DNA of 64,000 bases from Elusimicrobiota bacterium (GTDB lineage Bacteria > Elusimicrobiota > Elusimicrobia > UBA1565 > JACRDR01): assembly GCA_026388115.1 (NCBI GenBank), contig JAPLKK010000015.1, forward strand, positions 2,988-66,987, in the 5' to 3' direction. A model generated the notes under the pieces. The model was not told the DNA's origin. It did not search any database and worked only from the letters and a program-made list of their open reading frames with translations. A program made the translations under genes and the position numbers. Shown here in pieces: positions 19,687 through 22,600 of the stretch; positions within the stretch are counted from its first letter, which is position 1; every line of letters starts with the position of its first letter.

Positions 19687-22600
19687 GTGGGAAAGAAGCA
19701 GAAAGAAGATCAACAGGACGCGAAATCTTCTCCCGAAGGGGGAACGCCTATGCCGCAGTCTTCCGCGGAAGAGTTGACGCACAAAGGGGCCGAAGGAACC
19801 TACGACGCTTCTAAGATCCAGGTCCTCGAAGGATTGGAGGCGGTGCGCCGCCGCCCGGCGATGTACATCGGCTCCACCGGGCCCAGCGGGATGCACCACC
19901 TGGTCTATGAGGCCGTGGATAACTCCGTCGACGAGATCCTTGCCGGCCGCTGCTCCTCCGTCGATGTCCTCCTGCACCCCGGAAACACCTGCACCGTTTT
20001 AGACGACGGCTCCGGCATCCCCGTCGACGCGATGAAGGACCCGAAGCTCCCCGCCTCCCTGCGCGGCAAGTCCGCCCTCGAGGTCGTGATGACCGTCCTG
20101 CACGCGGGCGGCAAGTTCGACAAGGGCGCCTATAAAGTCTCGGGCGGCCTGCACGGCGTCGGCATCTCGTGCGTCAACGCCCTGTCGGAGTGGCTCGAGG
20201 TCGAGGTGTACCGCGACGGCAAAGTCTGGTTCCAGGCCTATGACCGGGGCAAGCCGCGCGCGGCCGTGGCGCCCAAGGGCAAGTCCGACGAGCACGGCAC
20301 GCGCGTCACCTTCAAGCCGGACCCGGACATCTTCAACGGGCACCTCTTCTCCTACGAGGTGCTGTCGAACCGCCTGCGCGAGCTGGCGTTCCTCAACGCC
20401 GGCGCCAAGATCACGATCATCGACGAGCGCGAGGACAAGAAGCATACCTTCCATTACCAGGGCGGCATCAACGAGTTCGTCAAGTTCCTCAACGCCAACA
20501 AGAAGGTCGCGCACGTCGAGCCGATCTCGTTCTCGAAGGCCAAGGAGGACGTGACCGTCGACTTCGCGATCCAGTACAACGAGGACTACTCCGAGAACGT
20601 CTATTCCTTCGTCAACAACATCAAGACGCCGGAGGGCGGCACGCACCTCGCCGGCTTCCGCTCGGCCCTGACCCGCGTCATCAACGACTATATCCGCAAG
20701 TACGACCTGTTGAAGGGAAAGAACTTCAACGTGACCGGCGACGACGTGCGCGAAGGATTGTGCGCGGTGCTGTCCTGCAAGATCCCGAACCCGCAGTTCG
20801 AGGGACAGACGAAGTCCAAGCTGGGCAACGCCGAGATCGAGGGCATCGTGAAGTCCCTGGTCGGCGACGCCCTGGTCACGTTCTTCGAGGAGAACCCCCA
20901 GCAGGCGCGCGCCATCTGCGGCAAGTCCATCGCCGGCGCCGAGGCCCGCGAGGCGGCGCGCAAGGCGAAGGAGCTCACGCGCCGCAAGGGCTTCTTGGAC
21001 GGCTCGTCGTTGCCCGGCAAGCTGGCCGACTGCCAGGAGCGCGACCCCGAGCACTCGGAGCTCTTCATCGTCGAGGGCGACAGCGCCGGCGGGTGCTTCT
21101 CGGGCAACACAAAGGTTGCGTTGGCTGACGGCCGGGAGCTTTCCTTCGGTGAACTAGCGAGGGAATGGGAAACTGGCAAGAAGAACTTCTGCTACACGAT
21201 CAAACGCGACGGCCGGATCGCGCTCGCACCGATTGAAAACGTGCGCCGCACGAAGAAGGACGCGGTCGTCGTGAAGGTAATCCTTGACGACGGCAGGGAG
21301 ATCGTCTGCACGCCCGACCACCGATTCATGCTTCGCGACGGAACTTATCGCGAGGCCAGCTCGCTTAAGCGAGGCGAGTCGCTGATGCCTCTGCGGCGGC
21401 AGCTGTCGCGCAAAGGCGCGCGGATCACCATCGATGGCTATGAGATGGTATTCGACCCCGCCCTGGCGCGATGGATTTTCACCCACCTCCTCGCGGACGC
21501 ATATAATCTGGAAGCCGGCGTTTACACGATCTCTACCGGCGAGCACCGCCACCATCTCGACTGGAACAAGCGGAACAACAATCCAGACAATGTTCGCCGG
21601 CTCGGGAAGGAGGAGCACCTTGAGCATCACCGTCGGCATGCCGACAAGACACTAAGAAGGCCCGAGGTGCTGGCGAAACTGCGCGCGCTTCACGCCGCGC
21701 CCGAATTCCGCGCGAGGATCAGCGCCGTGATGAGCAGCCCCGCGATGAGAAAGATGCTCTCCGCCCGGGCTGCGAAGCAGTGGGAGGACCCGCGATATAA
21801 GGAGCGGATGGCGCGCAAGTTCCTGGAGTTCTACTCCGCGAATCCCGAGTACCAAAAAAGGAATCGCACGCTCTTGAACGACGCTCAACGGAAGCACTGG
21901 GGGATCGCGGAGAACCGCAGGGCGCAGGCTGAGCGCACCGCCGCGTTCTTCGCGACCAATCCCGAAGCGAAGGCGATGCTGGCCTCGATCGGGAAGGAGC
22001 TATGGAACGATCCAGACCTGCTTAAGTGGCGCAGCGCCAAAACGAAGGAGCAGTGGACCCAAGGCTTCCGCGCTAAGCGGAAGGCGTCCTATAACGCGAC
22101 GTATCTGCGAAAGGCACTGTCCGTTCTGAACGGAATCTATGCGAAGACCGGCCGGGTGGATGAAGGGCGCTACAACGCTGAACGAAAGGCCCTAAAGGAT
22201 CGAAGCATCATCCGTCTCGACACCATCCGCGACCGTTTCTTCGGCGGAGACCAGAAACGGCTCAAGGAGGCCGTCGCGAACTTCAATCATAAGGTCATTC
22301 GCGTCGAACTCGTGACCGAGCGCATGGACGTATACGACCTTGAAGTCCCCGAGACCCATAACTTTGCCCTTGCCTCCGGCGTGTTCGTCCATAACAGCGC
22401 CAAGCAGGGCCGCGACCGCGCGTTCCAGGCGATCCTGCCCATCAAGGGAAAGATCTTGAACGTCGAAAAGGCGCGGCTCGTGAAGGTCCTGTCCAACGAG
22501 GAAGTCCGCACGCTCATCGCCGCCATCGGCACGGGCATCGGGCAGGAGGGCGGCGAGGGGGAGGAGGGGCTGAAGCCCGAGAAGCTCCGCTACCACAAGC

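Follow-up and report, generated by a model that had tools for sequence, protein, structure and literature searches.

A class 1 HNH-family intein at the Toprim site of GyrB in an Elusimicrobiota bacterium

Bifunctional inteins, which combine protein splicing with a homing endonuclease, are commonly of the LAGLIDADG type; the GyrB intein of Synechocystis, described in 1997, is reportedly the first HNH intein to have become known, and is said to be the one treated by Dalgaard and colleagues. Here we analyse a 434-residue insert in the gyrB gene of an Elusimicrobiota bacterium, which lies within a 64,000-nucleotide stretch of contig JAPLKK010000015.1 (assembly GCA_026388115.1; this whole stretch is the window), and compare it with the 'Ssp GyrB' intein of Synechocystis sp. 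PCC 6803 (InBase), whose family we take to be its own. Ssp GyrB has been found experimentally to splice in Escherichia coli (PMC3620165), and the work of Dalgaard et al. 1997 concerns, by its title as cited in PMC8966425, an HNH intein. The gyrB intein allele spans Halobacteria, Bacteria and other Euryarchaeota and so crosses domain boundaries (Soucy et al. 2014, PMC4071816), and 33 GyrB inteins have been counted in four bacterial phyla (Novikova et al. 2016, PMC4760082).

We find that the insert in the window is, close to certainly, a class 1 intein of the GyrB HNH family; with a probability of about 0.68 we consider it a bifunctional element of the Ssp GyrB type, residing in an essential gene, whose homing nuclease is still active. 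Ssp GyrB and its cyanobacterial, haloarchaeal and proteobacterial homologues (the 'gyrB' allele of Soucy et al. 2014) occupy the same host protein at the same site, EGDSAGG/S (a slash marks an insertion point throughout), fall into an equal length class (435 residues in the cyanobacterial members, 434 in the window) and have a common architecture of Hint-N, HNH, helical array and Hint-C. The window intein differs in its host, an Elusimicrobia genome of high G+C content, in being at most 65% identical to any relative found, and in three substitutions at positions that the family conserves. LAGLIDADG inteins such as PI-SceI, PI-PfuI and PI-MtuI follow the same logic, with the homing endonuclease set between blocks B and F of the Hint domain, and their Hint fold matches; the nuclease in the window intein, in contrast, belongs to another family.

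The intein and its splicing domain

A preliminary description of the window, made from its letters, had placed a 434-residue intein at 21094-22395, inside a GyrB open reading frame of 1315 residues, and translation gives exactly these boundaries: the insert begins with CFSGNT (the Cys1 codon being nucleotides 21094-21096), ends with GVFVHN and is followed by SAKQGRDR. The gene and its parts are listed here in order, with the intein numbered from its own Cys1 (GC3, G+C content at third codon positions; pLDDT, predicted local distance difference test).

19687-23634, + strand: gyrB open reading frame including the intein, 1315 residues
19687-21093, + strand: gyrB N-extein, comprising the GHKL ATPase, the transducer and the first part of Toprim to ...VEGDSAGG (Pfam HATPase_c, DNA_gyraseB, Toprim; NCBIfam TIGR01059 gyrB, 937 bits; GC3 0.917)
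21094-22395, + strand: whole intein, 434 residues, in frame and without stop codons (intein profiles, Hint-fold model, 49-65% full-length identity to GyrB inteins at the same site)
21094-21405, + strand: Hint N-terminal splicing region, intein residues 1-104, with block A Cys1 and block B T73-P-D-H76 (TIGR01445; beta-rich model, pLDDT 89-96; Foldseek matches to DnaE, DnaB and RecA inteins, E=8e-7)
21406-21657, + strand: HNH nuclease domain, intein residues 105-188, in which the beta-beta-alpha-metal core is preceded by a helix and two leading strands (PHROG, HNH_3 in relatives, BFVD Foldseek, model)
21550-21630, + strand: HNH motif core, intein residues 153-179 (H153, H154, N162 and N166 invariant)
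21658-22284, + strand: helical array, intein residues 189-397, presumed DNA-binding region (model helices, pLDDT up to 97)
22285-22395, + strand: Hint C-terminal splicing region, intein residues 398-434, blocks F and G (TIGR01443; PDB phmmer matches to RadA and RecA inteins)
22396-23634, + strand: gyrB C-extein from the nucleophile Ser+1, SAKQGRDR..., comprising the remaining Toprim, hook, insert and C-terminal domain (Pfam Toprim, GyrB_hook, DNA_gyraseB_C; GC3 0.937; gapless E. coli GyrB junction)

Intein profiles score well over their cut-offs: Pfam Intein_splicing PF14890 gives 72.6 bits on the intein (cut-off 35.8), TIGR01445, for the intein N-terminus, 47.6 bits (cut-off 24.5; E=2.5e-12) and TIGR01443, for the intein C-terminus, 31.9 bits (cut-off 15.6; E=1.1e-7). 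The standard boundaries (Cys1, His-Asn, then Ser) that had been read from the letters held up. The residues required for class 1 splicing are complete (Cys1, T73-x-x-H76, H433-N434 and Ser+1); in a 40-sequence family alignment T73, H76, H433 and N434 are invariant and Cys1 is at least 90% conserved. An AlphaFold2 model of the intein, for which this alignment was the input, has a mean pLDDT of 87, and when it was compared with the PDB by Foldseek the top 28 matches were all intein splicing domains (E=8e-7 to 1e-4); Ssp DnaE, Npu DnaE, Ssp DnaB, Mtu RecA and Pho RadA are among the named matches of the Hint fold.

With the intein removed, the junction aligns gaplessly to E. coli GyrB (6rks_B, E=1.6e-87), and the intein-free gyrB of the nearest relative (locus L081) also aligns without gaps across it, confirming the Toprim site EGDSAGG/SAKQGRDR proposed in the preliminary description. 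In E. coli numbering the insertion falls between G430 and S431, six residues past the Toprim catalytic Glu424, and because of this position the unspliced GyrB precursor is almost certainly inactive; in an essential gene, an inactive precursor implies that the intein splices. The conserved residues, the established intein mechanism and the behaviour of Ssp GyrB likewise suggest that it does.

Kinship with the Synechocystis GyrB intein, which had been proposed before, is probable on the comparison that we made: a putative Ssp GyrB mini-intein sequence, cross-checked against family members only, is matched best by cyanobacterial inteins of this family (73-75%), and its identity to the window intein is 57% in the N part and 70% in the C part. 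The window intein also scores 141 bits against the intein part (profile positions 78-310) of NCBIfam NF052663 (RtcB_rel_intein2, 'intein-containing RtcB family protein'), a score that places close relatives of the GyrB-family Hint domain among RtcB-like proteins.

The same protein is deposited at NCBI (P0267 in our set; 100% identical, 1286 residues) as 'MAG: DNA topoisomerase (ATP-hydrolyzing) subunit B [Elusimicrobia bacterium]', where MAG stands for metagenome-assembled genome. Its start codon lies 29 codons 3' of the start of the longest open reading frame, which puts the intein at residues 441-874 in the deposit's numbering and leaves its nucleotide positions as they are. The gyrB start is thus ambiguous between the GTG at 19687 (1315 residues) and 19774 (1286 residues, as deposited); gyrB profile alignments begin near residue 35-39. 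The deposited label is that of a plain GyrB, and a length of 1286-1315 residues could pass for a fusion or an assembly error; beyond correct annotation, the importance of this single case is little.

The central HNH domain and its helical array

Evidence at the level of the family and of the fold identifies the domain between the two Hint regions as an HNH nuclease, of the type found in I-HmuI and phage HNH_3 enzymes. PHROG HNH families 7545, 15471 and 21964 match the intein (E=1e-7 to 2e-4), and HNH_3 is matched at E<=1 in 15 of 18 relatives, at best with E=1.5e-5. In the model of the intein, strands 151-154 and 167-170 and helix 172-186 form a beta-beta-alpha arrangement. A separate model of the central domain (residues 100-398, pLDDT 91.7), compared with BFVD by Foldseek, matched many phage HNH homing endonucleases (probability at least 0.99, E=8e-4 to 5e-2); Bacillus phage SP-15 supplied the best match, a Hint-domain protein (E=1.6e-7). 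Besides the four invariant residues of the motif core, H175 and H179 reach at least 90% conservation in the 40-sequence alignment, and in a second alignment, of 18 sequences, they do not vary. Throughout the larger alignment the window intein retains 103 of the 106 columns with at least 90% conservation, including every HNH and splicing residue, and so shows no sign of decay.

The preliminary description had called this domain HNH-like and not LAGLIDADG. The second statement agrees with our searches, in which a LAGLIDADG endonuclease was rejected, no LAGLIDADG profile matching the window intein or any of 18 central domains; the first is upheld by PHROG, by 15 of the 18 relatives and by the fold matches, but not by the sequence's own score against Pfam HNH_3, which stays under the cut-off (figures below). 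The PDB gave less: Foldseek with the central domain returned nothing at E<=0.001 (the best match was an HNH Cascade domain, E=2.4), and single-sequence and profile searches against PDB sequences returned nothing meaningful.

A solved nuclease for comparison is I-HmuI (PDB 1U3E), to which hhalign (1u3e_M) aligned only the 25-residue HNH core, weakly (E=0.045), setting the window core HH-D-x-NK-x-NN-x3-N...H against D74-H75...N87...N96 (I-HmuI residues 69-93) and H154 on the general base H75. I-HmuI and the phage HNH_3 endonucleases likewise combine a beta-beta-alpha-metal core with leading strands and have no Cys4 zinc site. The two differ in the last metal ligand, predicted to be His175 in the window intein and Asn in I-HmuI; in the DNA-binding part, a helical array of about 200 residues in the window, whereas I-HmuI has a NUMOD-type helix and a helix-turn-helix; and in setting, the nuclease of the window sitting inside an intein while I-HmuI is encoded by an intron.

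In the model, the array behind the HNH core consists of about eight consecutive helices of 12-18 residues, each opening with Pro-(Glu/Asp/Ala)-x-(Arg/Lys) and often closing on a conserved Trp or Tyr, followed by a 30-residue helix and three short ones; conserved residues are W230, Y235, Y247, W304, W312 and W321. Internal repeats are significant (hhalign between non-overlapping segments, probability 96%, E=3e-9), so that the tandem helical repetition seen in the preliminary description stands, although the model has about eight Pro-capped helices where three repeats had been counted. The further suggestion that these are NUMOD-type modules had to be given up: NUMOD1, 3 or 4 was found at E<=1 neither in the 18 central domains nor in the window intein, and the sole fold match in BFVD with such a name, a protein 'NUMOD4' at rank 37, overlaps the HNH part. 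Searches with the array against Pfam, PDB sequences and PDB folds gave no match.

A central-domain profile was searched against 1.84 billion representative proteins (threshold E<=1e-3) and matched 1610 clusters; besides GyrB, those examined are GyrA and T4-like phage portal proteins (gp20), each with one to several Hint domains and mostly with HNH_3. In these metagenomic clusters the HNH domain and the first helical repeats are matched with E=1e-21 to 1e-47, always within Hint domains, usually over the first 120-200 residues of the module; they differ from the window intein in lying in other host proteins and at other sites, and some of the portal open reading frames hold several inteins. The HNH-plus-helix module is common to inteins of several host genes. 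When 50,697 deposited phage genomes were searched by tblastn with the central domain, none matched, so the link to phage portals comes from metagenomic clusters only. Three of these clusters (P0161, P0166 and P0201, 2296-2930 residues) are giant T4-like gp20 open reading frames with 4-6 Intein_splicing stretches and up to three HNH_3 stretches, P0201 also having a LAGLIDADG domain.

It is a doubtful proposition, in our judgement, that the array is an undescribed DNA-recognition module common to GyrB, GyrA and T4-like portal inteins, although it is strongly conserved, with invariant Trp and Tyr residues, and its model is a confident one. In a bolder variant, its conservation across domains would reflect a benefit to the host, for example control of gyrase through conditional splicing. 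If the array did read long DNA targets modularly, repeat by repeat, it would provide a new scaffold for programmable nucleases. The array has no solved or curated counterpart.

Relatives, mobility and base composition

The GyrB HNH-intein family is already described and very common, and the window intein is an ordinary further member of it. A protein search with the intein yielded 455 matches, and almost all of the 120 listed bear GyrB domains or a GyrB name; on many relatives the NCBI name is 'intein-containing DNA gyrase subunit B'. All 45 homologues that span the full intein have the identical insertion site, [VM]EG[DEN]SAGG / C...HN / S[ASCG]K, and 79 loci agree on it at the DNA level, the flanking codons being nearly universal. 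Most inteins of these 45 homologues are 429-435 residues long, with eleven shortened to 289-412, and the 434 residues of the window intein are the family mode.

In a scan of one genome per species, at least 473 bacterial and archaeal species genomes carry a relative of the window intein; the named hosts include Patescibacteria, DPANN archaea, Methanosarcinales, Thermoplasmatota, cyanobacteria, Chloroflexota, Nitrospirota, Acidobacteriota, Omnitrophota, Planctomycetes, Gammaproteobacteria and Elusimicrobia. Identity to the window intein over its full length (residues 1-434) is 49-65% in 80 genomes, cyanobacterial members lying at 49-53%; by sub-domain it is 58% in Hint-N, 56% in HNH, 43% and 38% in the helical parts and 70% in Hint-C. 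The GyrB HNH intein is among the most widely spread inteins, with many carriers in Patescibacteria and DPANN archaea. Since its A+T content usually exceeds that of the host, it can mark gene flow from one phylum, or one domain, to another. To our knowledge the nuclease of this family has never been characterised biochemically, and the high-GC, well-conserved intein of the window could serve as a candidate for expression.

Within Elusimicrobia the intein is sporadic. A search with the spliced GyrB listed 120 closest homologues at 69-89% identity, from Elusimicrobia wherever the source names an organism, and the intein is present in 3 of these 120: the deposit of the window itself (P0267), P0383 and P0377. 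The nearest GyrB relatives, P0268 (89%) and P0269 (85%), are intein-free. The intein-free allele of L081 equals the window's joined flanks at 75 of 90 nucleotides around the junction, where it reads CATCGTGGAGGGAGACTCCGCCGGCGGC followed directly by AGCGCCAAGCAGGGGAGGGAC. P0383 has a full intein of 434 residues, 65% identical to that of the window, whereas P0377, an Elusimicrobia GyrB of 1033 residues, has at the same site a mini-intein of 189 residues (452-640), which retains Hint-N, at 67% identity to that of the window intein, together with the final ~95 residues, and lacks the HNH domain and most helices; it is a natural deletion derivative. Empty, occupied and degenerate sites coexist in one phylum, as in a classical homing cycle.

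Intein similarity also departs from host similarity. In one locus (L004) the extein shares 77% identity with that of the window, but the intein only 58%, as against 70% with the intein of a Nitrospirae genome; the window intein itself is 62% identical to Nitrospirota inteins and 58-65% to those of Elusimicrobia. Empty, full and mini states side by side, with intein and host similarities that disagree, are what a homing cycle with horizontal spread would be expected to leave.

Base composition points in the same direction. The preliminary description had noted a lower G+C content than in the gyrB flanks, and this was borne out: overall G+C is 0.600 in the intein against 0.644 and 0.640 in the N- and C-exteins, and GC3 is 0.767 against 0.917 and 0.937 (Fisher p=3e-15), in a host of 66% G+C. 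Across the family, intein GC3 lies under the GC3 of its own extein in 68 of 77 loci, with a mean gap of 0.105 that is widest in GC-rich hosts, a pattern consistent with inteins that came repeatedly from AT-rich donors and were then partly ameliorated. The family mean intein GC3 is 0.40, compared with 0.77 in the window intein. Together, the sporadic distribution, the disagreement of intein and extein identities and the family GC3 pattern support the horizontal invasion that had been suggested for this intein.

The composition of the window intein alone is suggestive of foreign origin, not decisive; as stand-alone proof we rejected it, since dnaN has an equal GC3, which keeps the intein's value inside the range of its own genome. 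The trend across the family carries more weight. The dnaN value of 0.772 lies far under those of dnaA (0.869), the gyrB exteins (0.92-0.94) and gyrA (0.937). Wide gaps occur elsewhere in the family: in a Candidatus Jorgensenbacteria MAG (L030, intein at 3001-4302) GC3 is 0.369 in the intein against 0.818 in the extein, and L031, L053, L077 and L078 have gaps akin to it. Gaps of this kind reflect either very recent invasions or chimeric MAG contigs.

Homing, its alternatives and the neighbouring genes

The proposed course of events would run as follows. The whole precursor of 1315 residues would be translated, and Cys1 would undergo an N-S acyl shift, helped by T73 and H76 of block B; Ser+1 would attack the thioester, cyclisation of Asn434, helped by His433, would free the intein, and an O-N shift would leave a GyrB of 881 residues with the Toprim loop EGDSAGG-SAKQGR intact. 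The free intein, or the precursor, would then offer an I-HmuI-like HNH site, with H154 as the putative general base and N166 and H175 around the metal, and with the helical array as the DNA-binding arm of the nuclease. An intein-free gyrB allele would be recognised and cut or nicked near GGC GG/A GCG CCA AGC, and recombinational repair would copy the intein into the cut allele. That the element is still active in this way is suggested by its intact motifs and by a distribution like that of a homing cycle.

Several points weigh against a nuclease that is still at work. In the literature searched we found endonuclease activity reported for no member of the family. Like I-HmuI, an enzyme with one HNH site usually nicks just one of the strands, and the intein might make either a nick or a double-strand break. 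With Pfam HNH_3 (PF13392) the window's own sequence reaches 12.9-13.6 bits, under the cut-off of 24.8, and it deviates at three conserved positions (F157W, Y268H and Q303L). As for its origin, dnaN (GC3 0.772) alone among the 12 Pfam-confirmed genes of the window is as low as the intein, and the intein's GC3 is well ameliorated to the host; its arrival therefore does not date from very recent times, and its active phase could be over.

The intein might accordingly be a resident that only splices, its HNH domain no longer cutting, inherited vertically and heading towards a mini-intein. We think this unlikely, though it is an account to be taken seriously: a GC3 of 0.767, largely ameliorated against a family mean of 0.40, would fit it, as would the three substitutions and the 189-residue deletion derivative that a related Elusimicrobia genome already has. 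What speaks for an intact nuclease instead is that all HNH and metal-site residues and 103 of the 106 conserved columns are kept, that the frame is free of shifts and deletions and has the length of the family mode, and that the nuclease domain is normally where decay begins. It is very improbable that the intein is domesticated or regulatory, maintained not for homing but for a tuning of gyrase by conditional splicing or for some service of the free HNH-helical protein to the host. Across phyla and domains the intein is conserved like GyrB itself (49-58% identity, against 48-65% in adjacent extein segments), the insertion lies six residues from the catalytic Toprim Glu, and replication proteins are enriched for inteins (PMC4760082); yet the closest relatives do without the intein, its sporadic distribution does not track the host tree, deletion derivatives exist and the composition is foreign in most hosts, so that a selfish element is indicated rather than a selected host function.

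There is, lastly, hardly any chance that a metagenome assembler put another organism's intein into the gyrB of this MAG by way of the conserved flanks. The source is indeed a MAG contig, the flanking codons are nearly universal and the intein's composition is unlike that of the host gene, but a GC3 of 0.77, far over the family mean of 0.40, suits a host of 66% G+C, the reading frame is perfect on either side, and the best relatives (65%) stand in other Elusimicrobia contigs in the same dnaN-dciA-gyrB-gyrA context. We therefore retain the bifunctional intein with an active homing nuclease as the preferred reading.

The gene order around the intein is dnaA, dnaN, the DciA gene, gyrB, an open reading frame of 139 residues and gyrA, the named neighbours of gyrB being placed as follows.

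16744-18096: dnaA
18289-19398, + strand: dnaN
19404-19682: DciA gene
24037-26580: gyrA

Among the long open reading frames scanned in the window no further intein was seen. One of them, of 1401 residues at 52265-56470 (- strand), has an arginine decarboxylase match limited to residues ~820-1375 (Orn_Arg_deC_N, Arg_decarb_HB, Arg_decarbox_C) and contains no intein; its long N-terminal extension is probably a spurious high-GC open frame. The 139-residue open reading frame between gyrB and gyrA (23636-24055, + strand) has a hydrophobic, signal-peptide-like N-terminus and no Pfam match. It probably represents a genuine, conserved but uncharacterised gene, because a gene of 140 residues (3056-3478) occupies the same place after the intein-free gyrB of L081.

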